Both the position numbers and the translations under genes were made by a program. From positions 92,647,982 through 92,711,981 of the forward strand of contig NW_026262679.1 in assembly GCF_021869535.1 (NCBI RefSeq): 64,000 nucleotides of DNA, written 5' to 3'. Shown piece by piece: positions 1 to 49,305 of this stretch. The notes below the pieces were generated by a model that was not told the DNA's origin, searched no databases, and saw only the letters and a list, made by a program, of their open reading frames with translations. Numbering within the stretch: the first letter of the stretch is position 1; the number at the start of each line of letters is the position of its first letter. The stretch comes from Mytilus californianus. Lineage: Eukaryota.

Positions 1-3000
1 ATTCCATGTGGACTGCTTCCAAAAAATAAAACCAGATAATCTCCAGAAAACTTCAGCATGACATCTCAACGTCCCCTTCTACAGGCATAGGCAGGAAGCC
101 TGTAGCGGTTGTAGAACACTAGCGAACATCTTTGCCGCCCGTCCTCGCGAGTCAGCGACGGAGGCCATCTCAACATCGATGACTGTCGTCCCGTTTGGAG
201 GTAACCAGCTAATTAAAGGAAACGCCACAAACAGCAAAATTACTTAATATTACTTACACTGCCTACATTTCTTCAGGTCTTTCTGACCGTCTCCTGGTTC
301 TTCTGCCATCCTTGGTATAATTGGAAATAAAAGAAAGTCATTATTATTCAGAATCTACACAAATCACAACATTTTTATACACAATTTTTTTTAAACATTT
401 TCTTATTGTTGAAGGACTTGTCTGTGAACTTGATTATGAAGAACAGCAATAAAATAAAAGGGTTTCTTTGTTGTATACCAAGTATATTTGACATTTTCCC
501 CCTCGTTTTTTTCAATTTTTCTGCTTCTTCAACAGGGACGTCAGAAAGAAACAATCAATTAAACAATCTACTTCAGCGGGTAATACCCATCCTCACACTT
601 CTACCAGTGAGCGTATCTTTTTTTCGTTTGGCTGCATCATAATTCCATGTGGACTGCTTCCAAAAAATAAAACCAGATAATCTCCAGAAAACTTCAGCAT
701 GACATCTCAACGTCCCCTTCTACAGGCATAGGCAGGAAGCCTGTAGCGGTTGTAGAACACTAGCGAACATCTTTGCCGCCCGTCCTCGCGAGTCAGCGAC
801 GGAGGCCATCTCAACATCGATGACTGTCGTCCCGTTTGGAGGTAACCAGCTAATTAAAGGAAACGCCACAAACAGCAAAATTACTTAATATTACTTACAC
901 TGCCTACATTTCTTCAGGTCTTTCTGACCGTCTCCTGGTTCTTCTGCCATCCTTGGTATAATTGGAAATAAAAGAAAGTCATTATTATTCAGAATCTACA
1001 CAAATCACAACATTTTTATACACAATTTTTTTTAAACATTTTCTTATTGTTGAAGGACTTGTCTGTGAACTTGATTATGAAGAACAGCAATAAAATAAAA
1101 GGGTTTCTTTGTTGTATACCAAGTATATTTGACATTTTCCCCCTCGTTTTTTTCAATTTTTCTGCTTCTTCAACAGGGACGTCAGAAAGAAACAATCAAT
1201 TAAACAATCTACTTCAGCGGGTAATACCCATCCTCACACTTCTACCAGTGAGCGTATCTTTTTTTCGTTTGGCTGCATCATAATTCCATGTGGACTGCTT
1301 CCAAAAAATAAAACCAGATAATCTCCAGAAAACTTCAGCATGACATCTCAACGTCCCCTTCTACAGGCATAGGCAGGAAGCCTGTAGCGGTCGTAGATCA
1401 CTAGCGAACATCTTTGCCGCCCGTCCTCGCGAGTCAGCGACGGAGGCCATCTCAACATCGATGACTGTCGTCCCGTTTGGAGGTAACCAGCTAATTAAAG
1501 GAAACGCCACAAACAGCAAAATTACTTAATATTACTTACACTGCCTACATTTCTTCAGGTCTTTCTGACCGTCTCCTGGTTCTTCTGCCATCCTTGGTAT
1601 AATTGGAAATAAAAGAAAGTCATTATTATTCAGAATCTACACAAATCACAACATTTTTATACACAATTTTTTTTAAACATTTTCTTATTGTTGAAGGACT
1701 TGTCTGTGAACTTGATTATGAAGAACAGCAATAAAATAAAAGGGTTTCTTTGTTGTATACCAAGTATATTTGACATTTTCCCTCTCTTTTTTTTTCAATT
1801 TTTCTGCTTCTTCAACAGGGACGTCAGAAAGAAACAATCAATTAAACAATCTACTTCAGCGGGTAATACCCATCCTCACACTTCTACCAGTGAGCGTATC
1901 TTTTTTTCGTTTGGCTGCATCATAATTCCATGTGGACTGCTTCCAAAAAATAAAACCAGATAATCTCCAGAAAACTTCAGCATGACATCTCAACGTCCCC
2001 TTCTACAGGCATAGGCAGGAAGCCTGTAGCGGTCGTAGATCACTAGCGAACATCTTTGCCGCCCGTCCTCGCGAGTCAGCGACGGAGGCCATCTCAACAT
2101 CGATGACTGTCGTCCCGTTTGGAGGTAACCAGCTAATTAAAGGAAACGCCACAAACAGCAAAATTACTTAATATTACTTACACTGCCTACATTTCTTCAG
2201 GTCTTTCTGACCGTCTCCTGGTTCTTCTGCCATCCTTGGTATAATTGGAAATAAAAGAAAGTCATTATTATTCAGAATCTACACAAATCACAACATTTTT
2301 ATACACAATTTTTTTTAAACATTTTCTTATTGTTGAAGGACTTGTCTGTGAACTTGATTATGAAGAACAGCAATAAAATAAAAGGGTTTCTTTGTTGTAT
2401 ACCAAGTATATTTGACATTTTCCCTCTCTTTTTTTTTCAATTTTTCTTCCTCTTCCACAGGGACGTCAGAAAGAAACAATCAATTAAACAATCTACTTCA
2501 GCGGGTAATACCCATCCTCACACTTCTACCAGTGAGCGTATCTTTTTTTCGTTTGGCTGCATCATAATTCCATGTGGACTGCTTCCAAAAAATAAAACCA
2601 GATAATCTCCAGAAAACTTCAGCATGACATCTCAACGTCCCCTTCTACAGGCATAGGCAGGAAGCCTGTAGCGGTCGTAGATCACTAGCGAACATCTTTG
2701 CCGCCCGTCCTCGCGAGTCAGCGACGGAGGCCATCTCAACATCGATGACTGTCGTCCCGTTTGGAGGTAACCAGCTAATTAAAGGAAACGCCACAAACAG
2801 CAAAATTACTTAATATTACTTACACTGCCTACATTTCTTCAGGTCTTTCTGACCGTCTCCTGGTTCTTCTGCCATCCTTGGTATAATTGGAAATAAAAGA
2901 AAGTCATTATTATTCAGAATCTACACAAATCACAACATTTTTATACACAATTTTTTTTAAACATTTTCTTATTGTTGAAGGACTTGTCTGTGAACTTGAT

Positions 3001-4872
3001 TATGAAGAACAGCAATAAAATAAAAGGGTTTCTTTGTTGTATACCAAGTATATTTGACATTTTCCCTCTCTTTTTTTTTCAATTTTTCTGCTTCTTCAAC
3101 AGGGACGTCAGAAAGAAACAATCAATTAAACAACCTACTTCAGCGGGTAATACCCATCCTCACACTTCTACCAGTGAGCGTATCTTTTTTTCGTTTGGCT
3201 GCATCATAATTCCATGTGGACTGCTTCCAAAAAATAAAACCAGATAATCTCCAGAAAACTTCAGCATGACATCTCAACGTCCCCTTCTACAGGCATAGGC
3301 AGGAAGCCTGTAGCGGTCGTAGATCACTAGCGAACATCTTTGCCGCCCGTCCTCGCGAGTCAGCGACGGAGGCCATCTCAACATCGATGACTGTCGTCCC
3401 GTTTGGAGGTAACCAGCTAATTAAAGGAAACGCCACAAACAGCAAAATTACTTAATATTACTTACACTGCCTACATTTCTTCAGGTCTTTCTGACCGTCT
3501 CCTGGTTCTTCTGCCATCCTTGGTATAATTGGAAATAAAAGAAAGTCATTATTATTCAGAATCTACACAAATCACAACATTTTTATACACAATTTTTTTT
3601 AAACATTTTCTTATTGTTGAAGGACTTGTCTGTGAACTTGATTATGAAGAACAGCAATAAAATAAAAGGGTTTCTTTGTTGTATACCAAGTATATTTGAC
3701 ATTTTCCCTCTCTTTTTTTTTCAATTTTTCTGCTTCTTCAACAGGGACGTCAGAAAGAAACAATCAATTAAACAATCTACTTCAGCGGGTAATACCCATC
3801 CTCACACTTCTACCAGTGAGCGTATCTTTTTTTCGTTTGGCTGCATCATAATTCCATGTGGACTGCTTCCAAAAAATAAAACCAGATAATCTCCAGAAAA
3901 CTTCAGCATGACATCTCAACGTCCCCTTCTACAGGCATAGGCAGGAAGCCTGTAGCGGTCGTAGATCACTAGCGAACATCTTTGCCGCCCGTCCTCGCGA
4001 GTCAGCGACGGAGGCCATCTCAACATCGATGACTGTCGTCCCGTTTGGAGGTAACCAGCTAATTAAAGGAAACGCCACAAACAGCAAAATTACTTAATAT
4101 TACTTACACTGCCTACATTTCTTCAGGTCTTTCTGACCGTCTCCTGGTTCTTCTGCCATCCTTGGTATAATTGGAAATAAAAGAAAGTCATTATTATTCA
4201 GAATCTACACAAATCACAACATTTTTATACACAATTTTTTTTAAACATTTTCTTATTGTTGAAGGACTTGTCTGTGAACTTGATTATGAAGAACAGCAAT
4301 AAAATAAAAGGGTTTCTTTGTTGTATACCAAGTATATTTGACATTTTCCCTCTCTTTTTTTTTCAATTTTTCTGCTTCTTCAACAGGGACGTCAGAAAGA
4401 AACAATCAATTAAACAACCTACTTCAGCGGGTAATACCCATCCTCACACTTCTACCAGTGAGCGTATCTTTTTTTCGTTTGGCTGCATCATAATTCCATG
4501 TGGACTGCTTCCAAAAAATAAAACCAGATAATCTCCAGAAAACTTCAGCATGACATCTCAACGTCCCCTTCTACAGGCATAGGCAGGAAGCCTGTAGCGG
4601 TCGTAGATCACTAGCGAACATCTTTGCCGCCCGTCCTCGCGAGTCAGCGACGGAGGCCATCTCAACATCGATGACTGTCGTCCCGTTTGGAGGTAACCAG
4701 CTAATTAAAGGAAACGCCACAAACAGCAAAATTACTTAATATTACTTACACTGCCTACATTTCTTCAGGTCTTTCTGACCGTCTCCTGGTTCTTCTGCCA
4801 TCCTTGGTATAATTGGAAATAAAAGAAAGTCATTATTATTCAGAATCTACACAAATCACAACATTTTTATAC
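1..4872. repeat. Tandem satellite, 641-642 bp monomer, 7 full + 1 partial copies; array continues upstream of window
   Basis: Identical ORF-track entries recur every 641/642 bp (406, 1047, 1688, 2330, 2972, 3614, 4256). Monomer boundaries ('attccatgtggactgcttcc') fall at 1, 642, 1283, 1925, 2567, 3209, 3851, 4493. The array ends at ~4872, where 'ttatacacaatttttttt' is replaced by 'ttatacaaaatttgaag'. Two subvariants exist: copies 1-2 versus copies 3-8, which carry a 1-bp indel in the T-tract and the substitutions gttgtagaac/gtcgtagatc. Confidence 0.95.
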
Positions 4873-7560: not shown

Positions 7561-8344
7561 TAATTTTATATTTTGATAAATATTTGCCATTTTGTATTTA
7601 CTTGTAGTATCAATAATGCCACAAAAAATTACTTACCATGTTCAATTATAATCATATTCTTACCATACCTCTCAGAATCTGCAAGAGCTAACTCATGTAC
7701 AAAAATTGCTTGCTCTTTATGTCTGTTTTCTGCCATGTTGTTGGGTTTCACTAAAATATTGGTTTTATAGTTAATGTTGAAAACTGTGACAATTTTTTTT
7801 TTCAACTAAATTATTTTTTCTATAAAAATGATAAGTTTATATGTTTTATTCAACTTTAAAAAAAAAAATGTTATCCAATTCAATGAAGACTGATCAGTCA
7901 TCATCACAACTTCATTGATCAATAAACACCACCTGCCAGTGTGCAAGAGGTTGTGGGTTCAATTCCAAACAAGTTCAAATGACAATTTCAGTGATAAAAA
8001 AATAGTTGTTTGGAGTCGGAATGTTTCTGGTTACTGTGACTGAGGTCTTCCTTCAGACTGTTGACTTGTGAACTTTGCACCCTAAAAGTCAATTGTGAGT
8101 CTAGTACATGCAGGTTTACTTACATGTTCTCGTCCTGAATATGTAATATTTTCCACTGGACACAAACACCAATTCATATAAATTTCACTTAATTTCTAAT
8201 GATTGATTGAACATCAATATGTATAGCCACTTTCAGCACTCTTAGCTATATCTCTGGACAGTTTTAAATGGTAGAGAAATCCAAAGTACTGCGGCCCCTA
8301 CTTTCTGATATTTTTACATCTCAAGAAAAATAATTTGCTGACTA

Positions 8345-8470
8345 TAATATAAAAATAAGATGTGGTATGATTGCCAATGAGACAACTCTCCACAAGAGAC
8401 CAAATGACACAGACATTAACAACTATAGGTCACCGTACAGCCTTCAACAATGAGTAAAACCCATACTGCA
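8345..8470 (-). repeat. Solo 3'-terminal fragment of a Penelope-like element (same family as element at 23290-27180)
   Basis: The minus strand reads '...gtatgggttttactcattgttgaaggctgtacggtgacc...gagttgtctcattggcaatcataccacatcttatttttat'. This matches the 3' end of element B (27035-27180). Confidence 0.6.
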
Positions 8471-11085: not shown

Positions 11086-11935
11086 TTTTTTTTTAAATTC
11101 ACATTGAACGTCTAGACTATGGGCAATTTAGATCTTGACATTTTTATAAAGGCATGTCTATTGTTGAGTATCCAAGTTGCCCTGTAAGAGCCTGTCTTTT
11201 GGAGAAGGCTATATTTTGCTCTCTAGATGTCTAAGTTATGTATGTGCATGGTTGGGTTGCTATCTCATTTACCAGAAGTTCATGACTTCTGCATTTACTT
11301 ATACCCCACATCTACCTTCATTCATAGAAAAAGTTTGATCTGATAGAAATGATTACACTGATATTGAAAGGCAAAGTAATATTATTTTTGAAATATCAGA
11401 AAACCTGTTGCAGATATCAAATGATATGTCAAAGAGAGTGCCCAACTGTTTTTGAATTTATTATTATAATTTAACTGTTGAATAAGTTTTTTTTTTTATA
11501 TCATCGGACATTTGAATGTTCTAGATGCACAATTAACATATTGGATAGAAAATAAAAGGATATGGACTCCGTAAATGAACATTGGACAAAATCGCACACA
11601 ATACATAGAAAATTATCAATGGACAGGGCTTTTATTCCCGTTCTTCATCTTGACAGTTGATGTAGGGTCTTCAACAATGAACGAATCATTCCAATATTTC
11701 AACATTCAAAATTTTAGTTAGATCTCTCATGCACACAAGACATGTTAGACGGGGCTATATATGTTCATGTATAAGCATCCCTGAGTACAGAAGTTGACGG
11801 AGTTATACGTTAAGTGTACATTAAACTTTTAGTACTGTCAAATGATATTCAAAATCAGCATGAATGTCGGTCTACATCTTTCATTAATTGAATAGCTGGC
11901 AGATGATAAAACAACGGGTGGTTGTTGTTTAAACT

Positions 11936-12123
11936 CACACCTTAATATGGTTAAGATAAGAACACAATAAACGATACTTGTACATATCTTTTTCCTTCCA
12001 ATAAATAAAATATGTATTATACATAATAAACTCACACCTTAATATGGTTAAGATAAGAACACAATAAACGATACTTGTACATATCTTTTTCCTTCCAATT
12101 AATAAAATATGTATTATACATAA
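11936..12123. repeat. Tandem duplication, ~94 bp x2
   Basis: 'ctcacaccttaatatggttaagataagaacacaataaacgatacttgtacatatctttttccttccaat(a/t)aataaaatatgtattatacataataa' occurs twice in direct succession. Confidence 0.85.
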
Positions 12124-13984
12124 TAAGTGTTTATGAGAAAGAAAGACAATTAAATGTTACTTTTCCCGAACCCTACAAAACTTTAATAGCAATACACAAA
12201 TGCTATGCTTTGCATTTTTAAATAATTCATCATCCAACTTTTAGTACAGAATTTCAAATTCACATTGTTTCCTTTGTCATTAGGTGTGTACTGCAAATAA
12301 GCTCTTTGTAATTCATTAGCAATTTTCTAATCATACAAAATGTGTTTAAGTTCTATCTATATATTTGAAAAATAACCGGATAATGTTTAAAATTTTAACA
12401 ATTTTTAATAAGGACTAAAATTCAATTTAACATTTTCGTCATCATGAATTTATTTCAAACAATAATTGAAAAATGATTAACATTATTATTATTTTTTTTT
12501 AAGTTTCGACGCTATCTTATATCAAATATTTTCCGTCTTTCCCAATATGGTATGTATAGATATTGGTTTCAGTTCTTTACAATATACGTATACATGAACT
12601 GACGTTTGATAACGAAATAATCACCATATTCAAACTTCCAGGGACACCATCAAATGTAAACTTAAAATATTTTTTTTTGCACCTTCAGAAAGAAGAATTA
12701 TACAAAAATAACATGGGACATGGCGAAATAATGTCACTGCAATAATGAATTTTATAGGATTTTTTTACTACCACTCGTCATCATTGAATTTGGTTAAGTT
12801 ATGTAGGAAAAACGTATCTTTTCATGGGAAATTTTCAAATCATTAGGGACACCACTTTAAAATAACATAAAATAATTTTTTTAAAATCAAAATAAAGATA
12901 AATCTAATAATATTTTCACCTGCCATGGCAATAGTTTATGATTTTACAAATAAAATGTTGACAAATCATTTTAAAGCAACTGTCATGTTTTTTTCCATAT
13001 ACAACAATGTTAAATTTTATCAGTCCAAAAGTGCTCCGTTGTTGGTCACTGATAACACTACCCCCGCTGAGCTGTCCCTGATTCTTGTGTATGTACAACA
13101 TTCAAACCGGTCTACTCGATTCGCATATTCGCTCATTTAAATATGTAAATTTTATTGGCAGGAGGATTTTGGACTTAAAAGACATAATCTAGCCATAGAC
13201 AGGAGGGATCTGAATATTCTGCCGAACAAAATCCAGGCGGCTAGTAAACAATTTTGAACAAAAGGCCCACCAACAGGCGAAAATGAAGATTCCGAGATTC
13301 CGTCCGAAAAAAAATTCCCTCACCAGAAAAGCAAATGGTCGTCCCCTAAAAATATTGAAAAGTGGTCGTAACATGTATAGTCTTCATGTGTTTTTAACTC
13401 GTTCTCGACATTCAAGCTAAACATTCATAATGTGTTAAAATTATGGTGTCGGTGAAGAAAGAATAAGACTGACCTGACTGATAATATAAGGAATTTCCAA
13501 CCACAAAGTCAAGATATTAAATAGTCGTTAATTTTCAAACAACCGGTTCATTTTTAGGTGTTAACTTCAAATCATGACATCCCTCGTAAGAAAAATTAGA
13601 ACAATAGAACTTACCCGCCAAATACATTAACCAATCAATGGATAGCGGTTTAATGAACCGTGAATTGGAAAATAAAGACGTTCGGTGAAACAAAACTTTA
13701 CTAACACTTTAAACTGGGAATTAATATTGGGCCCTAGACTAAAACAAAAGACAAAATCAGTCCGTCAATTGTCTAGGTCCACGTCAATTAGTTAAAATAA
13801 GGGGGAAATTACAGCTGCCGCATAGAAAGGTGCGGGTCCAGGATTTGGAAAACGGGGCCCCTGTCAATCCAATGTTGGGAGTGATATAATTACTTGTAAA
13901 AAAGTATGCATTAAATATACGTATGAAAAAATCTTTAGTAACATAGCTTGACTGCTGAAGCCATGAAACCACATATAATCACAG

Positions 13985-15065: not shown

Positions 15066-18000
15066 TAATAAAATTGAGAATGGAAATGGGGAATGTGTCA
15101 AAGAGACAACAACCCGACCACAGAACAGACAACAGCAGAAGGCCACCAACAGGTCTTCAATGCAGCGAGAAATTCCCGCACCCGGAGGCGTCCTTCAGCT
15201 GGCCCCTAAACAAATATATATACTAGTTCAGTGATAATGAACGTCATACTAAACTCCAAATTGTACACAAGAAACTAAAATTAAAAATAATACAAGACTA
15301 ACAAAGGCTAGAGGCTCCTGACTTGGGACAGGCGCAAAAATGCGGCGGGGTTAAACATGTTTATGAGATCTCAACCCTCCCCCTATACCTCTAGCCAATG
15401 TAGAAAAGTAAACGCATAACAATACGCACATTAAAATTCAGTTCAAGAGAAGTCCGAGTCTGATGTCAGAAGATGTAACCAAAGAAAATAAACAAAATGA
15501 CAATAATACATAAATAACAACAGACTACTAGCAGTTAACTGACATGCCAGCTCCAGACTTCAATTAAACTGATTGAAAGATTATGTCTTCATCATATGAA
15601 TATCAGGCACAATCCTTCCCGTTAGGGGTTTAGTATCATACCATCATAACATATATGAGAAGAACATAACCCGTGTCATGCCAACAACTGGTTTTTAAAT
15701 AAATGTGTTTAGTGCAGATGCAAAGACCTTATAAGTGAATCAATATCAACGCCAAAATATGCAATCTTTAATGACCTGACAACAGTATCGTAACTATATC
15801 CCTTCTTAATAAGTCTATTTAAAGGTTTTGTTAGTTTCAGAGGTGAATACTGACATTTTTGTGCTTTATAAAGAATATTTCCATAAAAAATTGGATGTGA
15901 AATACCTGAACGTATAAGAAGTCTGCATGTTGAGCTATATTTACGAATGATGTCCTTATACCGATGATAAAATTTAGTAAATGTTTTGACTAGTTTGTGA
16001 TATCGAAAACCCTGGTGTTATAATTTTTCAGTAATACATACATTTCTCTCGTTAAAATCTAAAACATTGTTACATACACGAGCGAATCGTACAAGTTGAG
16101 ATATATAAACACCGTAAGATGGTGACAAGGGAACGTCACCATCTAAAAATGGATAATTAACGATAGGAAATGAAAAATCATCTCTTTTATCATATATTTT
16201 AGTATTAAGCTTTCCGTTAATGATATAGATATCAAGATCGAGGAAAGGGCAGTGGTCATTGTTAGTATTAGCTTTATTTAAAGTAAGTTCAACAGGATAA
16301 ATTTCTTTAGTATACATACTGAAGTCGTCATTATTGAGAGCCAAAATATCATCCAAATATCTAAAAGTATTATTAAATTTGTGTATCAGATGTTGTTTCG
16401 ATGGGTCTTTACTGATTTTTGTCATAAATTGTAACTCATAGCAATACAAAAAAAGGTCCGCAATAAGTGGTGCACAGTTAGTCCCCATTGGAATTCCGAT
16501 AACCTGACGATATACGGAATCTCCAAAGCGAACAAAAATGTTATCTAGTAAAAATTCAAGGGCATATATAGTATCAAAGCATGTCCAATTGACATAGTTT
16601 TTTTGTTTATTGCTACTAAAAAATGACCTAAAAGAGTTTGAACATATATATTCACATTCTGACTTTTTAAATGCCCATTTAATTAGGTGTGTGAATTTTT
16701 TCTTAATGAGAATGTGAGGCAATGTGGTATATAGGGTAGAAAAATCAAAACTTTGAACAGATTCAAAATCACCAATATATGCATGCAATTTATCAAGTAC
16801 TTCCAACGAGTTTTTGACACTCCAAAAGTAATTAATTCCACTATTTTCGAAGGCCTTATTTGAACAATTTATTATCAGGTTTTTGATTGTACCAAGTGTA
16901 CTGGTAAGAAGAATAGACAATTTAGTAGTGGAACAATGGCTTGAAGACGAAATGAATCTATATTTGTAAGGTGTTTTGTGTAGCTTCGGAAGCCAATACA
17001 TAGTTGGGACTTTCATTGTATTTGGTTCTGCTTGTAAAGCGGTAGCTAAAAGTTTATGTTTGTTACAGATGTCGTTTTCTGAAAATGGAGTCAGTTGGAA
17101 TGTTGGTGAATTGGTGATTTCTTTTTTCAGAACCTCAATGTAAAATTTACGTCAAACAATAATAATATTATTAGCAGCTTTATCGGCCGGGACAAAAACA
17201 AATTCCTTGGCTAGTTCTTTTAGTTTATGTTTGATACGAGAAATAGGTTTATTGTGGTTATTGTTAAGAGTAAAATGTTCTTTAAAATGTTGAATACGTA
17301 TATCAACTATGTTCATTACTGATTTAAAAAAAGAGTCCAAAGATTTTTTGTCAGCTTTTTCCCGTTTTATCCATTTCAAACAGTAAGTATGGAGTGAGTC
17401 GTGGATGATATTACGACACTCATTCCAATTAATAATTGACGGGGGACGATATTTAGGTCCTTTACTGAGGAATGATTTTAACTCTCGGTCTTGAACGATG
17501 TTAAGATCTCCTGTTATAACATGGGAAATGGGTCCATAAATGTATTCGGAATTACTGCAATTACATGAAGTAGGTGTATTTTCACTGATATTAACATCTT
17601 TACACAATTGGCTATAATTAAACACAAATTTCCGGGTAGATTTCTTGTAAATATAACAAATAAGAGGGAGCTCAGTATTATCAAAATATCCCGGAATTTG
17701 TTCTTTAACAGAATGGTCGTTAAAAATACCGGCAATATTTACAAAATCAAAACCTTTATTGACATACTTTATTTTAATAAACTGTTTTTTATGATCTTCA
17801 GGGCGATCAATTTTGGGAAACAGTTTAGAATAACAATATGCCATTATAATTTGAACGATTTCATACTTAGGACTGCTATATGAAATTGTGTTGCAATCCT
17901 CTAAAATTTTATTTAACTTATTAACCGGTAATGAACAGAGCTTTGTTAACAGATAATGTCTGCCGTTGTTTTTTGAAATAGAAATTAGGTCCGAAATATT

Positions 18001-19087
18001 GGTATGATTGGTCCGAAATTTTCTTTGATTGCGATTTTTTCTACGACCATGAGAACGGTTTTTACGAACAGTTTTAGAAACTATATCCAAAATGTTAACA
18101 GAATCGGTTCTTGATATATTACCAATTCCCATGATATTATCATTAAGACCGAGAGGGTAGACAGTCTGTAATTTTTTAATCCAATTTAATTCAATTATTT
18201 TCCGCGATCGTACAAACTTTGAATGAGATTCACCAGGCTGCTTATTTACTACTTCTAAAGGTTGAACTGCTAAATATTTAATAGGATGATTGTGCTTCTT
18301 AAGGTGTTGATAAATGATACTTTTGAATTTATTGGGTCTTTTAAAACGATACAGATGTTCTTGAGTGCGTTTAGATAAATATCGTCCAGTTTCACCTACG
18401 TACTGAATACCGCATCCCGGTTTGTTTCATGTGAGTAAATAAATTATACTGTTTGTTTTTCAAGTTATATCAGTTTCAAAATTTAAAGAAAATGTGCGAC
18501 CATTAAACGTGGACCTTACCGTATTGTTGGTGGAAAGACGGGGACATGTAAGTCATTTTTTGGCATGACACTTATCGATAGAAGGGTAACCACGATTTTT
18601 ATTGTTAAAAATGTTAGCGATGGTAGTATTTTTAGATAAGCGATTTTGAAGATTGAGACGTGTAGATACCCTTTGAACGAGTTTAGTATTTAATATTTTT
18701 CCATTTCTAAGCTTCATATTTGTTTTTTGTTTGTGAATTATATTAGAAAGGAGCAAAGACTGGCGTCCAGAATATGAACCAGCATACAATGAATTAAATT
18801 ATGTAAAAATGATAAATCTGTTCGGCTAAAGATGTCAAACGCTATCCGTATTAATTACCCGAAAAAGAAAGGGTATATTAGGGTAGCGACTGACGTCTGA
18901 CTAAATAGTAGAATGGGGCTGAATATTGAAATACTACTTTTTGATAAATATTCCTAAAGTAATGAACTAGAGAAGTTCTCGCTCGGACACACACTCCATA
19001 ATCTAGTATATTATAAGAGCATAAACCTGAAGCACGGGGAGGCACTCTACTGTCTCCACACGGCACTAAAGACAAACTCTGTAAAAA
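15066..19087 (-). mobile_element. Full-length Penelope-like retroelement (copy A1), permuted domain order: N-terminal GIY-YIG EN - CxC linker - RT (Naiad-like)
   Basis: It is ~4.0 kb. On the minus strand it holds a ~300-nt 5'UTR, one long reading frame from 18789 to 16018 and a ~640-nt 3'UTR. It abuts the 3' end of the truncated copy A2 at 19087/19088 and is ~99% identical to A2 over 3 kb. The 3' flank is a T/A homopolymer (15050-15060). Confidence 0.85.
16018..18789 (-). CDS. PLE polyprotein: GIY-YIG endonuclease + CxC linker + reverse transcriptase; single frame containing 4 in-frame TGA codons (candidate selenocysteine codons); truncated in this copy by a TTA>TAA change at 16018-16020
   Basis: ORF-track entries 18553..18789, 17152..18132 and 16018..17016 are all in the same frame, with every start coordinate divisible by 3. 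They are separated only by TGA at 18555-18553, 18462-18460, 18429-18427 and 17154-17152; no TAA or TAG occurs in 923 codons. The GIY-YIG domain reads 'IIYLLT*NKPGCGIQYVGETGRYLSKRTQEH...IIELNWIKKLQTVYPLGLND' (18456-18130). The linker carries the CxC motif 'TSCNCS', then 'VPADKAANNIIIV*RKFY'. The RT reads 'YWLPKLHK...YRFISS', 'YRQVIGIPMGTNCAPLIADLFL' and 'FRYLDDILAL'. The first start-like codon is TTG at 18789; the first in-frame ATG is at 18717. Confidence 0.8.
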
Positions 19088-22000
19088 ATAAAATTGAGAA
19101 TGGAAATGGGGAATGTGTCAAAGAGACAACAACCCGACCACAGAACAGACAACAGCAGAAGGCCACCAACAGGTCTTCAATGCAGCGAGAAATTCCCGCA
19201 CCCGGAGGCGTCCTTCAGCTGGCCCCTAAACAAATATATATACTAGTTCAGTGATAATGAACGTCATACTAAACTCCAAATTGTACACAAGAAACTAAAA
19301 TTAAAAATAATACAAGACTAACAAAGGCTAGAGGCTCCTGACTTGGGACAGGCGCAAAAATGCGGCGGGGTTAAACATGTTTATGAGATCTCAACCCTCC
19401 CCCTATACCTCTAGCCAATGTAGAAAAGTAAACGCATAACAATACGCACATTAAAATTCAGTTCAAGAGAAGTCCGAGTCTGATGTCAGAAGATGTAACC
19501 AAAGAAAATAAACAAAATGACAATAATACATAAATAACAACAGACTACTAGCAGTTAACTGACATGCCAGCTCCAGACTTCAATTAAACTGATTGAAAGA
19601 TTATGTCTTCATCATATGAATATCAGGCACAATCCTTCCCGTTAGGGGTTTAGTATCATACCATCATAACATATATGAGAAGAACATAACCCGTGTCATG
19701 CCAACAACTGGTTTTTAAATAAATGTGTTTAGTGCAGATGCAAAGACCTTATAAGTGAATCAATATCAACGCCAAAATATGCAATCTTTAATGACCTGAC
19801 AACAGTATCGTAACTATATCCCTTCTTAATAAGTCTATTTAAAGGTTTTGTTAGTTTCAGAGGTGAATACTGACATTTTTGTGCTTTATAAAGAATATTT
19901 CCATAAAAAATTGGATGTGAAATACCTGAACGTATAAGAAGTCTGCATGTTGAGCTATATTTACGAATGATGTCCTTATACCGATGATAAAATTTAGTAA
20001 ATGTTTTGACTAGTTTGTGATATCGAAAACCCTGGTGTAATAATTTTTCAGTAATACATACATTTCTCTCGTTAAAATCTAAAACATTGTTACATACACG
20101 AGCGAATCGTACAAGTTGAGATATATAAACACCGTAAGATGGTGACAAGGGAACGTCACCATCTAAAAATGGATAATTAACGATAGGAAATGAAAAATCA
20201 TCTCTTTTATCATATATTTTAGTATAAAGCTTTCCGTTAATGATATAGATATCAAGATCGAGGAAAGGGCAGTGGTCATTGTTAGTATTAGCTTTATTTA
20301 AAGTAAGTTCAACAGGATAAATTTCTTTAGTATACATACTGAAGTCGTCATTATTGAGAGCCAAAATATCATCCAAATATCTAAAAGTATTATTAAATTT
20401 GTGTATCAGATGTTGTTTCGATGGGTCTTTACTGATTTTTGTCATAAATTGTAACTCATAGCAATACAAAAAAAGGTCCGCAATAAGTGGTGCACAGTTA
20501 GTCCCCATTGGAATTCCGATAACCTGACGATATACGGAATCTCCAAAGCGAACAAAAATGTTATCTAGTAAAAATTCAAGGGCATATATAGTATCAAAGC
20601 ATGTCCAATTGACATAGTTTTTTTGTTTATTGCTACTAAAAAATGACCTAAAAGAGTTTGAACATATATATTCACATTCTGACTTTTTAAATGCCCATTT
20701 AATTAGGTGTGTGAATTTTTTCTTAATGAGAATGTGAGGCAATGTGGTATATAGGGTAGAAAAATCAAAACTTTGAACAGATTCAAAATCACCAATATAT
20801 GCATGCAATTTATCAAGTACTTCCAACGAGTTTTTGACACTCCAAAAGTAATTAATTCCACTATTTTCGAAGGCCTTATTTGAACAATTTATTATCAGGT
20901 TTTTGATTGTACCAAGTGTACTGGTAAGAAGAATAGACAATTTAGTAGTGGAACAATGGCTTGAAGACGAAATGAATCTATATTTGTAAGGTGTTTTGTG
21001 TAGCTTCGGAAGCCAATACATAGTTGGGACTTTCATTGTATTTGGTTCTGCTTGTAAAGCGGTAGCTAAAAGTTTATGTTTGTTACAGATGTCGTTTTCT
21101 GAAAATGGAGTCAGTTGGAATGTTGGTGAATTGGTGATTTCTTTTTTCAGAACCTCAATGTAAAATTTACGTCAAACAATAATAATATTATTAGCAGCTT
21201 TATCGGCCGGGACAAAAACAAATTCCTTGGCTAGTTCTTTTAGTTTATGTTTGATACGAGAAATAGGTTTATTGTGGTTATTGTTAAGAGTAAAATGTTC
21301 TTTAAAATGTTGAATACGTATATCAACTATGTTCATTACTGATTTAAAAAAAGAGTCCAAAGATTTTTTGTTAGCTTTTTCCCGTTTTATCCATTTCAAA
21401 CAGTAAGTATGGAGTGAGTCGTGGATGATATTACGACACTCATTCCAATTAATAATTGACGGGGGACGATATTTAGGTCCTTTACTGAGGAATGATTTTA
21501 ACTCTCGGTCTTGAACGATGTTAAGATCTCCTGTTATAACATGGGAAATGGGTCCATAAATGTATTCGGAATTACTGCAATTACATGAAGTAGGTGTATT
21601 TTCACTGATATTAACATCTTTACACAATTGGCTATAATTAAACACAAATTTCCGGGTAGATTTCTTGTAAATATAACAAATAAGAGGGAGCTCAGTATTA
21701 TCAAAATATCCCGGAATTTGTTCTTTAACAGAATGGTCGTTAAAAATACCGGCAATATTTACAAAATCAAAACCTTTATTGACATACTTTATTTTAATAA
21801 ACTGTTTTTTATGATCTTCAGGGCGATCAATTTTGGGAAACAGTTTAGAATAACAATATGCCATTATAATTTGAACGATTTCATACTTAGGACTGCTATA
21901 TGAAATTGTGTTGCAATCCTCTAAAATTTTATTTAACTTATTAACCGGTAATGAACAGAGCTTTGTTAACAGATAATGTCTGCCGTTGTTTTTTGAAATA

Positions 22001-22117
22001 GAAATTAGGTCCGAAATATTGGTATGATTGGTCCGAAATTTTCTTTGATTGCGATTTTTTCTACGACCATGAGAACGGTTTTTACGAACAGTTTTAGAAA
22101 CTATATCCAAAATGTTA
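19088..22117 (-). mobile_element. 5'-truncated PLE copy (A2) directly upstream, in element orientation, of full-length A1: pseudo-LTR tandem arrangement
   Basis: Homology to A1 (offset ~4020) runs from the element 3' end at 19088 up to 22117. There the sequence diverges ('aacagaat|aagactag' versus A1 'aacagaat|cggttcttga'), so the EN domain and the first three TGA sites are missing. Confidence 0.85.
19729..22110 (-). CDS. Linker + RT portion of PLE polyprotein (copy A2), continuous frame with one in-frame TGA (21174-21172); intact RT C-terminus ending at TAA 19731-19729
   Basis: ORFs 21172..22110 and 19729..21036 share one frame. The 435-aa RT ORF keeps 'ITEKLLHQGFRYHKL...' where A1 has a stop. 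Confidence 0.75.
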
Positions 22118-23346
22118 ACAGAATAAGACTAGATATTAATTGATTAAAATTTAAATCTTTATTTTGTCATGATCCATGTGAAGAGATTTTTATTCATGTT
22201 TCTCAGGTTTGGAAACTTTGGAAACTTTTGAAATAAATTTTATAAGAGTTATAATCTTGGTGAATTATAAAGACTACAATCTAGAACAAATTCAATTTAG
22301 TTATGCGACCAATGTTAACATATAGCTTTCACATGTGGACAGCACCAAGCTAAAGTTTTCCCGAGACACTATTTAGTTTGCGTTCTTGTCTCCCAGTTTC
22401 TATCCTGTGGTTACTAAACCTAAATTAAGTACAAATTCTTCGTTTGTAAACATTGATAATTTTTAAGTGACTCTCAAAATTGAATAAATTTTGGTTAGTA
22501 GATTGTTCCATGAACATGTTTACACAGGTAGTAAACACTCACTCACTAGCTATACAGTAAATATGGTGTCCGGTTGAGATTGTGTTTTTTTTGGAGTGAA
22601 TCGTTCCACTTTTTCGAAAGCAGACCTTGTTTTTTCGAGTGAAATTACATATGATAAAATCAATTTACTTTTATTCCGCAAGTATATCACTTTTATTCAA
22701 TACTTGCCAACTTATTTTTAATAATATTCAAGTTTTGAACATTAACTACGCATAATTGTCCCCTATTTCATTTAAAAATACCGAAAATAGTACTAAAATG
22801 GTAAGAAAATTAAATCATTGTCAATTACAAAAAGATAACAAGACACATGCTGTAAATTGTTAATTTTTTAAATCATAGTTTGATGGTCCGACCTTAGCAA
22901 CTTTTGAATAACTGCAATAAAAGCGCTGTCTCTTTAATATATTGGTAATTCTCTAGTATTTGATGATATTTTTGTCTGGTGAACTTCCTCTTTTAAATGG
23001 ATTAGATATCCAGAAAGATATCCATTGTTTGAGCAACAATAAAAAAAATAACCGCTGGATAGCTATCCAATGGATAGACTGTTTATCCATTGGATAGGCT
23101 ATCCAGTGGATAACTTTATCCAACGTTTTGAGCAACTCAGTCCAGGACACCATCTGGTAAGAATATATGGTCATTTTCATGAGTGTAATGGCATACGAAT
23201 AAATGTTATAAAGCTTACACCAAAGGAATTTTAAGGTTAAGGTTATTTCTTGTTTTTATAACAATATTAACGAAGATATCAGAAGAGACTATTTGGTTTT
23301 CAAGAAATTGCTAATAGGTGTTAAAGAGTTATTTGAAAAAAGGTAA

Positions 23347-24210
23347 ATGCCAATTAGTAAATTACATAATAGTTATAACGAGTGTGATACTATATCATTT
23401 TTCAGTCCAAAATATGAGTGTACACGCATTATTACAGCTTTTTGTCACCATAGACTGTTTCCTCAAACTGACAAACCTGAAGATCATAAAAAGTATTTTC
23501 TAAAAATAAAATACATTAACAGATGTATTGATTTCATTAATTTGTCTAGTATTTTTCATGACTCTACTGTTCAAAACTTTATACCTCCATATCTTGATAA
23601 CATTGAGCCACCTATAATTTCTTATTCGTATAAAAAAAAGAACAGTAGAAGTTTAAATTTTAATTATACGTCAGTTACATCAGACGTCAGTATAGAAAAT
23701 AATGCTCCTTCAACATGAGACTGTGAAACATCGACTGAGTTTAGATATGATCCCTATGGCCATGTAATTACAGGGGACCTCAACATAGTTCAAGACCGAG
23801 AGGTTATAAACTTTCTGAAAAAAGGACCAAAATATCGTCCACCGTCGAAAATAAATTGGAAAGAGTGTCGTCAGGTTATTATAGATGCTCTTTCATCCTA
23901 CTGTAAAAAAAATGGTGTAAACGGGAGAAATATGACAAAAGGTCACTTGAATCCTATTTAAATAAATGTCTGAATATTGTTGATATTCGCATACCACGTT
24001 TCGAAAATAATTTAGAAATAAATAAAAGAAAGTAATACGCCCATTTCTAGGATTAAATTCAAGTACTCTTAAAGCGTTTTGTGTTCGTACCGGCCGACAA
24101 AGCAGCCAACACTGTGATGATGGTATGACGTAAATACTACACAGAAGTCCTTAAGAATGAAATTATACATTTAGCTACATAAAATTAAATAAATAAATAA
24201 TCTTTATTTC
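23347..24210 (+). pseudogene. Element B linker-domain remnant; TGA at 23716-23718 aligns with first Cys of the CxC motif of A1, TGA at 24126-24128 aligns with the A1 TGA at 17154-17152
   Basis: B reads '...NNAPST*DCETSTEFRYDPYGHVITGDL' where A1 reads '...ENTPTSCNCSNSEYIYGPISHVITGDL'. B reads 'PADKAANTVMMV*RKYYTEVL' where A1 reads 'PADKAANNIIIV*RKFYIEVL'. The flanking nucleotides have diverged but the TGA is retained. A frameshift lies between the two blocks. Confidence 0.6.
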
Positions 24211-25175
24211 AAGAGGATAATCCCATTAGTGAAAACTAATCTTCCTGAGAGTCCTCAAAATAATAATAACATATTTATAAAGTGCATTCAATATTATAAT
24301 GATATATGCACAATATACAATTTTATATAGATATTAATGAAAAAGCATATTAATTTGCACAATTTATGAAAACATTTGTAACATTTTGTTTTAAAAGATA
24401 CAAGTGTATTACTCATCTTTATTTCATTTGGTAAACTGTTCCATATTTGAGAACCAGAATATATAAATGTTTTCTTAAAAAAAAAATGTTTTTGGCTTTC
24501 GAAGATGTAATAGCTTTTCATCAGCTGAACGTGAATTATAATTTTGATTATCAGTAAAATGAATGTTTTCTTGTAAATAGTTAGGAACCATATCCTTTAA
24601 TGATTTAAATACAAGTATTGCCTTTTGATATTGAATTCGTTTTTCCACATTTAACCATTTTAAACTATTAAACAATACACTGGAAGATGTCATTATGTCA
24701 GCTTCTACTATAACCATAGCAGATTTCTTTAATAACTTATTAAGTTTGTTTATTCCACTTTCATATCAACAACCCCATATATTGCAACAATAATCAAACA
24801 ATGGCAGATTATAAGCATTAGAATAAATGATACGTTTATGCATAGGTAAATACTTTCTTATCTTTTGTAATAAGTTGATTCTATTTGATATTGTACATGA
24901 CATTTTATCTATTTGCTCATTCCAATTTAGGTTTTTGTCGATACATAAACCAAGAAGTTTTTCACAATCTACATTCTCTATTTGTTCATCTGAAATATTG
25001 ATATCTAAACTGTTCCCAGTTGAATAAAGCCTTTCTTTTGAACCAATTATCGTTGATTTACATTTTTTGGCATTTAGTTAAATATTAAGTATTAGTTCAA
25101 GGCCGTACGCTCCACAGAGAGTCATATAGTAAATAATCATGTCACTACCACAGCTCAGCTTAAGGCCTCCTTTGA
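24185..25175 (-). mobile_element. CR1/L2-like LINE 3' fragment (RT C-terminal region + conserved C-terminal tail) nested inside PLE element B
   Basis: The minus-strand translation reads '...VDCEKLLGLCIDKNLNWNEQIDKMSCTISNRINLLQKIRKYLPMHKRIIYSNAYNLPLFDYCCNIWG...', then '...SVLFNSLKWLNVEKRIQYQKAILVFKSLKDMVPNYLQENI...R...KTFIYSGSQIWNSLPNEIKMSNTLVSFKTKCYKCF'. It splits B between 'RKYYTEVLKNEI' (24170) and 'MYWLPKLH' (25190). Confidence 0.65.
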
Positions 25176-25179
25176 ACAT

Positions 25180-26370
25180 TTGAAGGTCCCCACTATGTAT
25201 TGGTTACCTAAACTACACCAAAAAACCCCGTAAAATATCGTTTCATCTCGGCCTCTAGTAAGTGTTCTACTACTAATCTTTCGGTGCTTTTAACGAGTTC
25301 CTTAACTACTATCAAAGAACTTATCATTCATTTTTGTAAAAAAAAAATATGAAAATAGTGGAATTAACCATTTTTGGAGTGTAAAAAATACTTTGGATGT
25401 TTTAAAAAAATTACGCGCATTTGAAGGTCCTTTTGATTCGGTGGACAGTTTTGACTTGTCCACTCTTTATACTACACTTCCACTCAATCTTATTAAACAA
25501 AATTTTCCTATCTATTTTAATGGTCGTTTGATAAATCTGATTGCAAAATTATTTGCTGCAAATCATATAAAGCCTTTTTCTCAATTGAGAAAGGTAAATA
25601 TGCTAGATATACTTACTGGAGGTATGATTAGATGATTAAAGCCGTAAATTTTCTCCCTGACAACATTTATGTACGTTTCGGCAATACAGTTTATCGACAG
25701 GTTGTATGTATGTTCCTATACTGTTATGAATCACAGTTTATGGCAAAACTCAGCAAAGAACAGTCTAAATTCTATTTAATTGATAATTAATTCTTGATGA
25801 TATTGTTTTCGTTAAATAATCAAGAATTCTCTAAATATGCTGCTGAAATTTACCCAAAGGAACTTACTTTAAATAAACCAAATATTTACAGTGATAATTG
25901 TCCTTTCATAGATTTAGATATTTCAGTGTTACACCAGAAACTCTACACAAAAATTGGGGATGATTTTTCTTTTCCTAGTGTTAATTTTCATTTTTTGGAC
26001 GATGATGTTCCTTTGGCACCGTCTTACGGTGTTTATATATCCAAACTCGTTCGTTAAGCCCGTGTCTGTAGTGACGTTTTGGATTTCAATGAGCTTAATC
26101 TATGTATTATTAGAAAATTATTGTGTCAATGATTTCGTTACCACGCATTAATTAAAACCTTTACTAAATTCTTCCATAGATACAAAGATTTGGTTTGCAA
26201 GTTTGGCTGTACCTGTAGAAAACTTATTTCAAACGGAATAGCACATCCTAAATTTCACGGTGATGTTGTTAACCGAGCCCGGAAATTTAGATACGATCGG
26301 GTAAACATATCAATCCTTTATATAAACTTATTCTGAAAGGTCACCAATTCAACACTGTAATAAATCTTTG
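25180..26370 (+). pseudogene. Element B reverse-transcriptase remnant (frameshifted, internal deletions)
   Basis: See the element B entry. ORF-track fragments 25393..25635 and 25794..26057 are homologous to the A1/A2 RT. Confidence 0.6.
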
Positions 26371-27449
26371 AATATTGTTTTCATTGGTATGAATATTGAT
26401 TTTGTAATCAGTAAATTAAAACCATACTAAATATGATTGTTATAAATATATGTTATTTCACGGTACTACAATCTGTCGATATCTATATTTTAGCATTGCA
26501 CAATGTCATGTTTTTCTCTGACTGTTAATGACGTCTTTACACTAAATCCATTGGATGTTAGATGTATACTGATTGATATTTTAGTCTTAAATACACGATT
26601 TGTTTTGTTAGTTGTTATTGGCCTTGAACTAGCTGTCAGTAACTACAAGTACTATCAGATCTGTACTTAATGTCTTTTTGTTGTTAGGGATGAGGGATGG
26701 ATACATACCCTGCCACGTCCGGTCCGTGATTTTGTATGATGTTTTTCTGCTTTGTATCGATCTGATGAGTTAAGCCTTTTTCGACAGATTTTTATAGTTT
26801 GTTCTTAAGTTGTGCTGTTACAACACTGTCCCAGTTTAGGGGAGGGTTGAGCGCTCACAAACATGTTTAATCCCTCCACATTCTTTATGTGCCTGTCCCA
26901 AGTCAGGAGCCTGTAGTTCAGAGGATGTCGTTGGTTCATTGTCTGTCATATTTTTTTTTCGTAAATTATTTTGTTATAAATTAGGCCTTTATACAGTTTT
27001 CTCAGTGGAATTGTTTCATATTTGTCATGTCGGGGCCTTATATGGCCGACTATATGGTATGGGTTTTTCTCATTGTTGAAGGCCGTACGGTTGCCCACAA
27101 TTGCTTACATTCACTTTATTTGAACTTTGGTGGATAGTTGTCTCATTGGCAATCATACCACATCTCCTTATTTTTATATTCATCATTTAAAAAACATCCG
27201 TCTTTTTTATGATAATGTTCCTCTTCGGGAGGATTTACTTATAGTACAATGAAAGGATTAAGATAATTATTAATGGAATCAAACTTATGTGTTGTCTTTT
27301 CCTATATGTGAGCAAATTGAATATTTCTTTTATCAAATATTATCTTTTTAATACTTGGAGGTTCACATTGCAAGTAACCTCATGTCGATTAAAGCTTGAC
27401 ATGTTTTCAATTGTCGAAGATCGTATGTATCCTGATATCTAAATAAAGA

Positions 27450-27990
27450 GCTGCGCCATGAACGCATGATACGCCCGTCGCTTTTTCAAAGAATAAAGTT
27501 CCATAACTCCTCAATGTCATATCAGAAATTTATAAAAAAAAACTAAAGGGATGTTATTTTAATAGATATAAAACAGTCACCAAAGTTTTATGAAAACTGC
27601 TCAAAGCACTTTTGAGTTATTGTCCGAAAACTGGAAAATCCCATTTTTTATGAATAAAACCCCATAACTCAGAATCTAAAATTTATAAAAATCGAAAGGG
27701 AGCTGACGTCACTAGATACATGTATAAACAATTCACCAAAGTTTCACGAAAATTGCTTAAAGCATTTTTGAGTTATTGTCCAAAAACTGGAACCCCCCTT
27801 TTTTAATGAATAAAACCCCATAACTCAGAATCTAAAATTTATAAAAATCGAAAGGGAGCTCATGTCAATAGAGATAAACAATCCACCAAAGTTTCATGCA
27901 AATTGGTTAAAGCGTTTTTGAGTTACTGTCCGACATGTTGACGATGGACGGATGGACAACGGTATACCATAATACGTCCCGTAAACGGGC
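27450..27990 (+). mobile_element. pearl/Helentron-like nonautonomous element (three ~140-bp internal subrepeats, GACGG tail, terminal hairpin)
   Basis: It starts 'gagctgcgccatgaacgcatgatacgcccgtcg', like the element at 7180. It carries three subrepeats ('aaaatttataaaaatcgaaagggagct...caccaaagttt(c/t)a...') and ends 'gttgacgatggacggatggacaacgg...gtcccgtaaacgggcat' (hairpin). Confidence 0.55.
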
Positions 27991-40249: not shown

Positions 40250-40564
40250 GGTAAGAAAACTCAATGAAACAATATACAGACAACGGTAAGAAAACTCAAT
40301 GAAACAATATACAGACAACGGTAAGTAAACTCAATGAAACAATATACAGACAACGGTAAGAAAACTCAATGAAACAATATACAGACAACGGTAAGAAAAC
40401 TCAATGAAACAATATACAGACAACGGTAAGAAAACTCAATGAAACAATATACAGACAACGGTAAGAAAACTCAATGAAACAATATACAGACAACGGTAAA
40501 AAAACTCAATGAAACAATATACAGACAACGGTAAGAAAACTCAATGAAACAATATACAGACAAT
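40250..40564. repeat. 35-bp minisatellite, ~9 units (ggtaagaaaactcaatgaaacaatatacagacaac)n
   Basis: 'ggtaag' recurs at 40250, 40285, 40320 and so on up to 40530. It lies in the intron immediately upstream, in gene orientation, of CTLD exon 40227-40089. Confidence 0.9.
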
Positions 40565-48529: not shown

Positions 48530-48870
48530 AAACTCTACATTGGCTAGAGGTATAGGGAGAGGGTTGAGATCTCACAAAACATGTTTAACCCCTCCGCATT
48601 TTTGCGCCTGTCCCAAGTCAGGAGCCTCTGGCCTTTGTTAGTGTTGTATGTTTTTTTAATTTAAGTTCATTTATATGTTTTGGAGTTTAGTGTGACGTCC
48701 ATTTTCATTGAACTAGTACACATTGTTTAGGGCCCAGCGGAAGCCCGCCTCCGGGTGCGGGATTTTCTCGCTGTTTTGAAGACCCATTGGTGGCCTTCGG
48801 CTGTTTTCTGCTCTTTGGTCGGGTTGTTGTCTCTTTGACACATTCCCCATTTCCATTCTCAAATTTATCT
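48530..48870 (+). repeat. 3'-terminal fragment (~330 bp) of a PLE related to A1/A2
   Basis: The segment reads 'ggctagaggtatagggagagggttgagatctcacaaaacatgtttaacccctccgcatttttgcgcctgtcccaagtcaggagcctctgg', then 'gggcccagcggaagcccgcctccgggtgcgggattttctcgctg...gggttgttgtctctttgacacattccccatttccattctcaaatttat'. This is collinear with the A1 3'UTR in RNA orientation. Confidence 0.7.
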
Positions 48871-49305
48871 ATTTTACAATTTTTATATTTGCATTCTTTT
48901 CTCATATTTTGGCATAAACAAGTAAGTGTGACGTGTTTATAAAGCAAAAGTGTCAAACAGAGCATTATGGTGCAAGAACAATCCCAACAATAATTGAAAA
49001 AAAACACGTGATACATTTCGTGCGTCTGAAGCGCTTTTCTGGATTTGCCTTCATCAGAAACGATTAAAGCTAAACCTATATACATGTATATATATAGGCA
49101 GTGGGTAACATATCAGTGATTTTCAATTTTTTGGAGGGCTGATAAGAGCATTTTTTAGGGGTACCTGTATAACCCCTTTTGCCCAACCCCTTTGTCGCTT
49201 ATGAAACTTTCACTTAATCACAGAGACAATCAAGTTTTGACAAGGCAAATGGTGTGCAACCGAAATGGAAACATAAAATTGTAATTTGTCAGATTCCAGC
49301 AAGTT

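Follow-up and report, generated by a model that had tools for sequence, protein, structure and literature searches.

In-frame TGA codons of a decayed Naiad-clade Penelope-like element in Mytilus californianus as probable inherited selenocysteine codons

Introduction

When a transposable element has long been dead, can a stop codon that it inherited as a sense codon still be told apart from the nonsense mutations that have accumulated around it? The question is raised by element B, one of three related retroelement copies lying at 15-27 kb of a 64,000-nucleotide stretch of the Mytilus californianus assembly (contig NW_026262679.1, positions 92,647,982 to 92,711,981; hereafter the window). B lies on the plus strand, and its relatives A1 and A2 on the minus strand; A1 and B are Naiad-clade Penelope-like elements (PLEs). 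B carries a TGA at a cysteine position that A1 and A2 retain as Cys, and shares a second TGA with both. The evidence set out below indicates that the two TGAs are very probably selenocysteine (Sec, U) codons, inherited from an active Naiad master element which encoded a selenoprotein directed by a selenocysteine insertion sequence (SECIS).

Selenoprotein-coding Naiads have already been published. In two clams and two spiders, Naiads of four families code for selenoproteins that contain three to four UGAs each (Craig et al. 2021, PMC8557442), the Sec sites being a Cys before the GIY-YIG motif, the Cys eight residues past the DKA motif (here DKA+8) and zinc-finger Cys residues. The CxC motif of the linker region is absent from the Sec sites listed by these authors. 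Nothing further on selenoprotein-coding transposons was found in the later literature. The window provides a confirmation and a modest extension of that work, not a new kind of system. For comparison, DNA was read for 11 related element families in public assemblies (L001, L002, L012, L013 and L021 to L027), these relatives coming from metagenome and read-set assemblies.

The two TGA codons of element B

Element B is a decayed, 5'-truncated copy occupying approximately 23281..27183 on the plus strand. Its ends were set by alignment with intact families (tblastn and blastn): the match to L012 begins at 23281, and the 3' tail is alignable to 27183. The nearest intact family is L002/P0131, with 77% amino acid and 76.5% nucleotide identity over 23347-24180, and protein identity to the A elements is approximately 50-54%. 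B begins inside the linker region and is without the GIY-YIG nuclease domain.

The first TGA (23716-23718) occupies the position of the first Cys of the CxC motif, giving UxC. It is in frame with an ATG at 23347, in the context GAA AAT AAT GCT CCT TCA ACA TGA GAC TGT GAA ACA TCG (E N N A P S T-TGA-D C E T S; in the longer reading, NNAPST-TGA-DCETSTEF), and is the sole stop within the 188-codon segment 23347-23909. The alignment with the S-C-N-C of A1 and A2 is column for column (tblastn, 54% identity over 188 amino acids), and in both cases the motif is followed by GxKF/Y, the full arrangement being S-C-N-C...GPKY in A and T-U-D-C...GPKY in B. A first-pass annotation of the window had proposed that a TGA of B replaces a conserved cysteine of A1 and A2, and this is borne out, with one correction: A1 and A2 encode the first CxC Cys by TGT (minus strand, 17563-17565 and 21583-21585), the TGC given earlier being that of the second Cys.

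The second TGA (24126-24128) is found at DKA+8, downstream of a PADKAAN motif (DKG to DKA) which A1, A2, B and all relatives share, and of which D, K and A are invariant in a 62-sequence alignment. Its context is PADKAANTVMMV-TGA-RKYY in B versus PADKAANNIIIV-TGA-RKFY in A1 (17152-17154) and A2 (21172-21174). The sharing of this TGA between B and A1 had also been claimed in the first-pass annotation; alignment upholds it and extends it to A2, although the flanking strings had been attributed the wrong way round, aatattattattgtt belonging to A and cactgtgatgatggta to B. The same column holds TGA in L001, L002, L013, L023 and L024, and Cys (TGT) in L012, L021 and L022.

Between the two codons, an A8 homopolymer (23905-23912, plus strand) carries a +1 frameshift, the frame passing from +1 to +3 at YCKK|WCKRE. 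Each TGA reads in the homologue-matching frame on its own side of this point, and neither lies within a frameshifted segment.

The remainder of B is in an advanced state of decay. Stops of the TAA or TAG type occur at 24033, 24048, 24054, 25788 and 26055, an additional TGA lies at a Gly column (26130), and there are several frameshifts. Within the 278 aligned N-terminal codons five stops are present, two of them TGAs at TGA columns of L002 and three of them TAA or TAG at ordinary columns. The element is split by a 915-bp insertion (24181..25095, minus strand), both flanks of which meet at L002 position 2147 in blastn alignments. Minus-strand open reading frames (ORFs) at 24294-24717 within the insertion are similar, as judged by eye, to the C-terminal tail of the ORF2 of long interspersed nuclear elements (LINEs), and the insertion is probably a LINE 3' end. 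The earlier description of B as a frameshifted, opposite-strand copy split by an insertion is accordingly correct, and the LINE identity of the insertion probable. The reverse transcriptase (RT) part of B follows at 25096..26327 (plus strand), with several frameshifts and stops. B is a dead, neutrally decaying pseudogene. An arrangement known for PLEs, in which an inverted 5'-truncated copy stands next to an upstream pseudo-long terminal repeat (pLTR), was considered for B together with A2 and rejected, since B shares only about 50% protein identity with A and falls in another clade. For the same reasons, B is an independent and older insertion.

Codon states in related families

Protein searches with A returned homologues in three classes: those with Cys at both the CxC and DKA+8 columns (distant homologues), those with Cys at the first and an end right after DKA+7, and those with Trp at both. 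With B, clusters of 67-77% identity were found to end just before the CxC Cys (P0128, P0130, P0131, P0137, P0138 and P0142), and P0121 and P0123 carry W at this site. Metagenome catalogues write Trp at Sec codons of these elements (genetic code 4, TGA read as Trp), as in P0007, P0009, P0030, P0046, P0056, P0073 and others. The DNA of L001, L025, L026 and L027 proved such Trp-coded sites to be TGA.

The intact families are interrupted by TGA and by no other stop. L001 has an otherwise open frame of 778 codons with exactly two stops, both TGA, located at the CxC Cys and at DKA+8. The 1001-codon ORF of L002-L005 contains five TGAs and no TAA or TAG, the contexts in L002 being NNVPST-TGA-DCETSS at CxC and VVVV-TGA-RIYY at DKA+8. 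L012 has TGA at CxC, TGT at DKA+8 and an additional TGA at YARV-U-SDV, whilst L013-L016 have six TGAs, the CxC and DKA+8 sites among them, one of those of L013 standing at P-U-NATK. This site and that at YARV-U-SDV are additional ones at Cys columns. In seven tabulated ORFs of 792-1035 codons, in-frame TGAs number five in L002 and L012, six in L013, four in L021 and L022, three in L023 and two in L001, with no TAA or TAG.

Cys and TGA alternate between the two linker sites. In L021 and L022, which are 77% identical to A, CxC is TGA and DKA+8 is TGT, the reverse of the Cys/Sec state of A. L023 and L024 combine a Cys codon at CxC with TGA at DKA+8, and L025, L026 and L027, which are W-coded in the protein entries, have TGA at both. 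As read from DNA, the CxC codon is therefore TGA in B and in nine families (L001, L002, L012, L013, L021, L022, L025, L026 and L027) and TGT or TGC in A1, A2, L023 and L024. All five members of B's clade have TGA at this column (B, L002, L012, L013 and P0121, the last known as protein only, with W), as do three other clades (L021/L022, L001/L026 and L025/L027).

Columns, phylogeny and selection

When eight families are aligned, all 33 of their in-frame TGAs fall in seven alignment columns. Outgroup proteins have Cys at the CxC and DKA+8 columns in 14 cases out of 14, at the three endonuclease (EN)-domain columns shared with A1 (118, 149 and 160) in both of the proteins which cover them, and at the seventh TGA column in 9 of 12. 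In a larger set of 116 sequences, the outgroup has Cys at both CxC and DKA+8 (58/58).

In a neighbour-joining tree of these sequences the selenoprotein forms make up one clade, sister to the Cys/Cys clade, and Sec at CxC marks four subclades, that of B included. Fitch parsimony requires five changes at CxC and four at DKA+8; had the CxC codon been lost through independent nonsense hits, about 20 changes would have been needed at that column. The small number of changes shows the Cys and TGA states to be lineage-consistent and not scattered in the manner of nonsense mutations, which settles in favour of the first-pass annotation the comparison that it had called for, a family-wide alignment with the states placed on a copy phylogeny. 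Sec at DKA+8 is ancestral to the whole selenoprotein clade, with a return to Cys in L012/P0121 and in L021/L022, and the CxC Sec site is common to all of B's clade.

Protein-level conservation continues past the UGAs. In comparisons of family pairs, the ratio of nonsynonymous to synonymous substitution rates (dN/dS) is 0.06-0.30 in every inter-TGA segment for which dS could be estimated (dS approximately 0.7-2.6), and it is 0.063-0.133 across the 135-136 codons that separate the CxC TGA from the DKA+8 TGA. Synonymous sites in the vicinity of the TGA or TGT codons are saturated, yet TGA or TGT has been kept. The idea that purifying selection has preserved the TGA itself holds for the family and its active masters, but not for the B copy, which decays neutrally: selection acted on active master elements, not on B.

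A probable SECIS element

A hairpin resembling a SECIS lies in the 3' untranslated region (UTR) of A1, approximately 50 nt past the stop codon (15593..15657, minus strand; Rfam SECIS_1, 31.7 bits, E=4e-4 in a 1-kb search). The same sequence recurs in A2 (19613..19677, minus strand), none of the three differences between A1 and A2 falling inside it. Matches to SECIS_1 at the homologous 3'-UTR position score 28.4 bits in L002 and 33.0 bits in L012. In B a decayed remnant persists in the 3' UTR (26520..26586, plus strand; 17 bits, E=5.3) at the position homologous to the L002 SECIS, with the ATGA, the apical AAA and the 3' TGAT kept. A simple scan of L001 for the ATGA pattern did not find a SECIS.

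Across an alignment of eight families, the ATGA and the apical AAA are invariant. Compensatory double changes are seen at 10 of the 13 helix pairs, and helix II covaries. Alignment cells are paired in 82.5% of cases, a figure that is 46% at most with slid partners. The observed values were not attained in any of 500 shuffles. These features are strongly suggestive of a SECIS of type-II-like form.

The origin of the TGA codons

The TGA columns of the relatives, the dN/dS values, the covarying SECIS and the clustering of states argue together that the TGAs of B are inherited Sec codons and not random nonsense. In the mechanism proposed, active members of the clade would encode one polyprotein consisting of an N-terminal GIY-YIG endonuclease, the CxC linker and a telomerase-like RT, and several in-frame UGAs of its mRNA would be decoded as selenocysteine by means of a type-II-like SECIS hairpin that the element itself carries in its 3' UTR. 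Both TGAs of B would descend from a master of this kind. With a SECIS to hand, any conserved Cys codon (TGT or TGC) could turn into a Sec codon through a single change at its third position, and as readily turn back; a SECIS already present and a one-step codon change would account for repeated toggling between Cys and Sec at the seven Cys columns. The Sec residues would take over the work of the Cys residues that they replace, probably metal binding or redox chemistry in zinc-finger-like and CDGSH-like motifs.

The strongest rival, itself improbable, is that the TGAs are selected but serve as leaky or programmed stops, read as near-cognate Trp, Cys or Arg and setting the ratio of short to long product much as in retroviral gag-pol. 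In its favour, the TGAs do occur where domains are concerned, on either side of the EN domain and ahead of the RT, the SECIS scores fall short of the Rfam threshold, and Sec insertion is a prediction from sequence. Under that hypothesis, however, the TGAs would be expected at domain boundaries; instead, 33 out of 33 lie in columns where the outgroup has Cys entirely or for the most part, and they interchange solely with TGT and TGC. A hairpin of the form ATGA...AAA...GA with covarying stems has moreover been kept in the 3' UTR of eight families, and five or six leaky stops in series would leave almost no full-length RT.

That the CxC TGA of B arose as an ordinary nonsense mutation (TGT or TGC to TGA) during decay, its coincidence with a Cys being due to chance, is highly improbable. 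Such an origin is natural enough for a pseudogene that has at least five other TAA or TAG stops and several frameshifts and that carries a TGA at a Gly column as well, and a Cys codon is one step from TGA. Against this, TGA fills the same column throughout B's clade, and in three further clades, within long ORFs whose only interruptions are TGAs, and in B it is the one stop in 188 codons, at a site where the nearest intact family, L002, also has TGA. The suggestion that the TGAs separate independent ORFs, expressed by reinitiation or from subgenomic transcripts with no recoding, can barely be entertained. Gene callers do split these elements into ORFs, and a separate ORF1 is known in some PLEs; but the pieces invariably share one frame and need no Met past the stop, TGA is the stop in every case, to the exclusion of TAA and TAG, and close relatives have a Cys codon and a continuous ORF at the same places (L021 through DKA+8, A through CxC).

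Several observations weigh against the interpretation of the TGAs as inherited Sec codons. Sec insertion at the UGAs is a prediction. Every SECIS_1 match is below the gathering score of that model (35 bits), the best being 33.0 bits; an Rfam gathering search of the whole window gave zero matches, the SECIS appearing only in local E-value searches, and an E-value search of six loci together (27 kb), with its larger search space and stricter filters, gave nothing at E<=0.1. L025 and L027 share a TGA upstream of the linker (D-U-F(K/R)L) which aligns with Tyr in A, not with Cys; this may be a candidate non-Cys Sec site, like the RT6(D) site of Naiad_Scon. Some of the relatives may be consensus-like assemblies of multi-copy elements. 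The neighbour-joining tree carries no support values, so that the count of independent switches is approximate. Finally, 'stop' and 'W' states seen in protein entries only were presumed to be TGA, a presumption with which the DNA agreed in all cases checked (L001, L023, L024, L025, L026 and L027).

Granted that these are Sec codons, a tentative extension, which is possible but rather doubtful, is that the first CxC Cys and the DKA+8 Cys form one metal-binding or redox centre, tuned by Sec at either position or at both. A shared centre of this kind would account for the reciprocal C/U, U/C and U/U states of sister families.

Elements A1 and A2 and the element class

A1 is a full-length Naiad element of 4020 nt (15067..19086, minus strand), with an ORF running from an ATG at 18715-18717 to a TAA at 15709-15711. 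It contains four in-frame TGAs and one TAA, and no other stops. The first TGA (18553..18555) lies in a zinc-finger-like motif, KCHAKK-U-LTC, at a position which is Cys in the homologue P0040 and TGA in L002, L012, L013, L021 and L022. The second, at DIT-U-KT (18460..18462), was placed by frame reading and by the P0040 and family alignments. The third (18427..18429) directly precedes the GIY-YIG motif (LLT-U-NKPGCGIQYVGETGR), a site named in PMC8557442, and the fourth is that at DKA+8 (17152..17154), likewise a published Naiad Sec site. The first CxC Cys (17563..17565) is the Cys counterpart of B's CxC TGA. The TAA (16018..16020) is a nonsense mutation private to A1, A2 having TTA.

A2 (19087..22124, minus strand) is truncated at its 5' end, at 22124, and abuts the 5' end of A1. 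Its sites correspond to those of A1: TGA at 21172-21174, CxC TGT at 21583-21585 and stop at 19729-19731. The two copies agree at 3035 of 3038 aligned bases (99.9%; 15067-18104 versus 19087-22124), the three differences being at 16018-16020, 16206 and 17352 in A1 and at 20039, 20226 and 21372 in A2. The RT of A1 being broken by its private TAA, the intact-looking RT belongs to the 5'-truncated A2. In the A elements the DKA+8 TGA precedes the entire RT. Given the near-identity of A1 and A2, recent retrotransposition by the family's own RT would imply that the DKA+8 UGA is read through in vivo, mobilisation in trans being the alternative.

The domain order of A1 places a GIY-YIG nuclease N-terminal to the linker and RT, with a KR-rich stretch, the CxC motif, GPKY and PADKAAN following the nuclease and preceding the RT, a set of features by which the Naiad clade is recognised. 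The N-terminus matches P0040 (E=2e-28) over residues 89-269 of the latter, which cover its Pfam GIY-YIG match (25.2 bits, cutoff 22.6), and all three U positions of the A1 EN domain align with Cys in P0040. The nuclease region is also present in L002, L012 and L013. Pfam searches of the A polyprotein and of the N-termini of A1 and L002 gave no RT or GIY-YIG match. A telomerase-like RT with an IFD insertion is expected of a Naiad, the RTs of PLEs being the sister group of the telomerase reverse transcriptase. An AlphaFold2 model of the homologue P0022, which is not a window protein (predicted local distance difference test score 88), has telomerase RTs as all of its top 14 matches in the PDB.

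The partial-tandem 'pseudo-LTR' arrangement is typical of Penelope-like elements (PMC8557442). A2 and A1 form such a partial tandem, and the same junction of 3' end to 5' start is found in contig L021. An Rfam gathering search of the whole window, which returned no family, detected no canonical hammerhead ribozyme, in line with its absence from the Naiad clade.

Genomic setting

The window is AT-rich (approximately 33% GC) and full of repeats, and its only long ORFs are those of the one retroelement family. A 642-bp satellite occupies 1-4800 in about eight head-to-tail copies of approximately 99% identity, with 39% GC against about 33% in the remainder. Further tandem arrays are located at 40250-40563 (35-bp unit, nine copies), 59603-60221 (160 bp), 27577-27933 (156 bp), 55681-56015 (167 bp) and 11930-12126 (97 bp). 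Three to four palindromic TATCCAnTGGATA motifs are clustered at 23040-23125, between A2 and B.

Short copies of the conserved Naiad-like 3' tail, together with one A-like 3'-UTR fragment, are scattered through the window (8344-8466, 27057-27179, 52692-52771, 61340-61419 and 48577-48882). The A-like fragment is 86-90% identical to 15068-15362, and the SECIS lies outside it. Such a distribution agrees with the many 3'-end fragments that Craig et al. (PMC8557442) remarked on.

Comparison with known systems

The elements described here share with the published Naiads an N-terminal GIY-YIG EN with zinc-finger-like motifs, a KR-rich stretch, the CxC linker, GxKF/Y, DKA and RT, pseudo-LTR partial tandems, a probable SECIS in the 3' UTR and three to four in-frame UGAs at conserved Cys positions, the pre-GIY-YIG and DKA+8 sites included. 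They differ in three respects. Sec here occupies the first Cys position of CxC in at least four clades, the comparison having been made with the description given in the paper; there are five to six UGAs per ORF in L002, L012 and L013; and reciprocal Sec/Cys swaps between CxC and DKA+8 are seen between close families. Sec at CxC, five to six Sec per ORF, the reciprocal swaps and the size of the clade are accordingly what is new relative to Craig et al.

Naiad_Sdum and Naiad_Smim of the spider Stegodyphus (PMC8557442) likewise have multi-Sec ORFs, a SECIS, and Sec at DKA+8 and before GIY-YIG. The extra Sec sites of the spider elements lie in a CX2-5CxxC finger and were inferred by the authors to be of independent origin, whereas the clade described here is linked to marine samples, and CxC is among its extra sites.

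A more distant parallel exists with Selenoprotein P, which typically carries two SECIS elements. It too has several UGAs per ORF and processive Sec decoding by way of a 3'-UTR SECIS, and bivalves have a high Sec-decoding capacity; for molluscs, a figure of up to 132 UGAs is given (Baclaocos et al. 2019, as cited in PMC8557442). Selenoprotein P is an unrelated host protein of selenium transport, whereas the present case concerns a mobile element with one SECIS, in which Sec would replace structural or catalytic Cys. The CxC motif of Naiads was also noted to be weakly homologous to zf-CDGSH, an iron-binding finger (Craig et al., PMC8557442). The pattern C-x-C-x2-S-x(5-6)-P-(C)-G-H, seen in homologues, resembles the CDGSH iron-sulfur domain of mitoNEET type, but Pfam finds no match on the A protein and the selenoprotein clade does not conserve the third Cys.

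Implications

These elements have consequences for annotation, in which they are fragmented at each TGA. P0053, a Naiad RT, has been filed under a metagenome-assembled genome (MAG) of a 'gamma proteobacterium symbiont of Lucinoma', and its presence there most likely reflects contamination from the host clam.

The clade is large, with dozens of protein clusters in public assemblies which stop, or show W, at the same columns, and it offers a convenient natural experiment on how Sec codons originate once a SECIS exists. A clade with its own SECIS and at least seven columns flipping between Cys and Sec would, on a broader and rather doubtful reading, exceed every known protein family other than Selenoprotein P in Sec plasticity, and would provide a natural system in which Cys-to-Sec transitions and the dispersal of SECIS elements may be observed.

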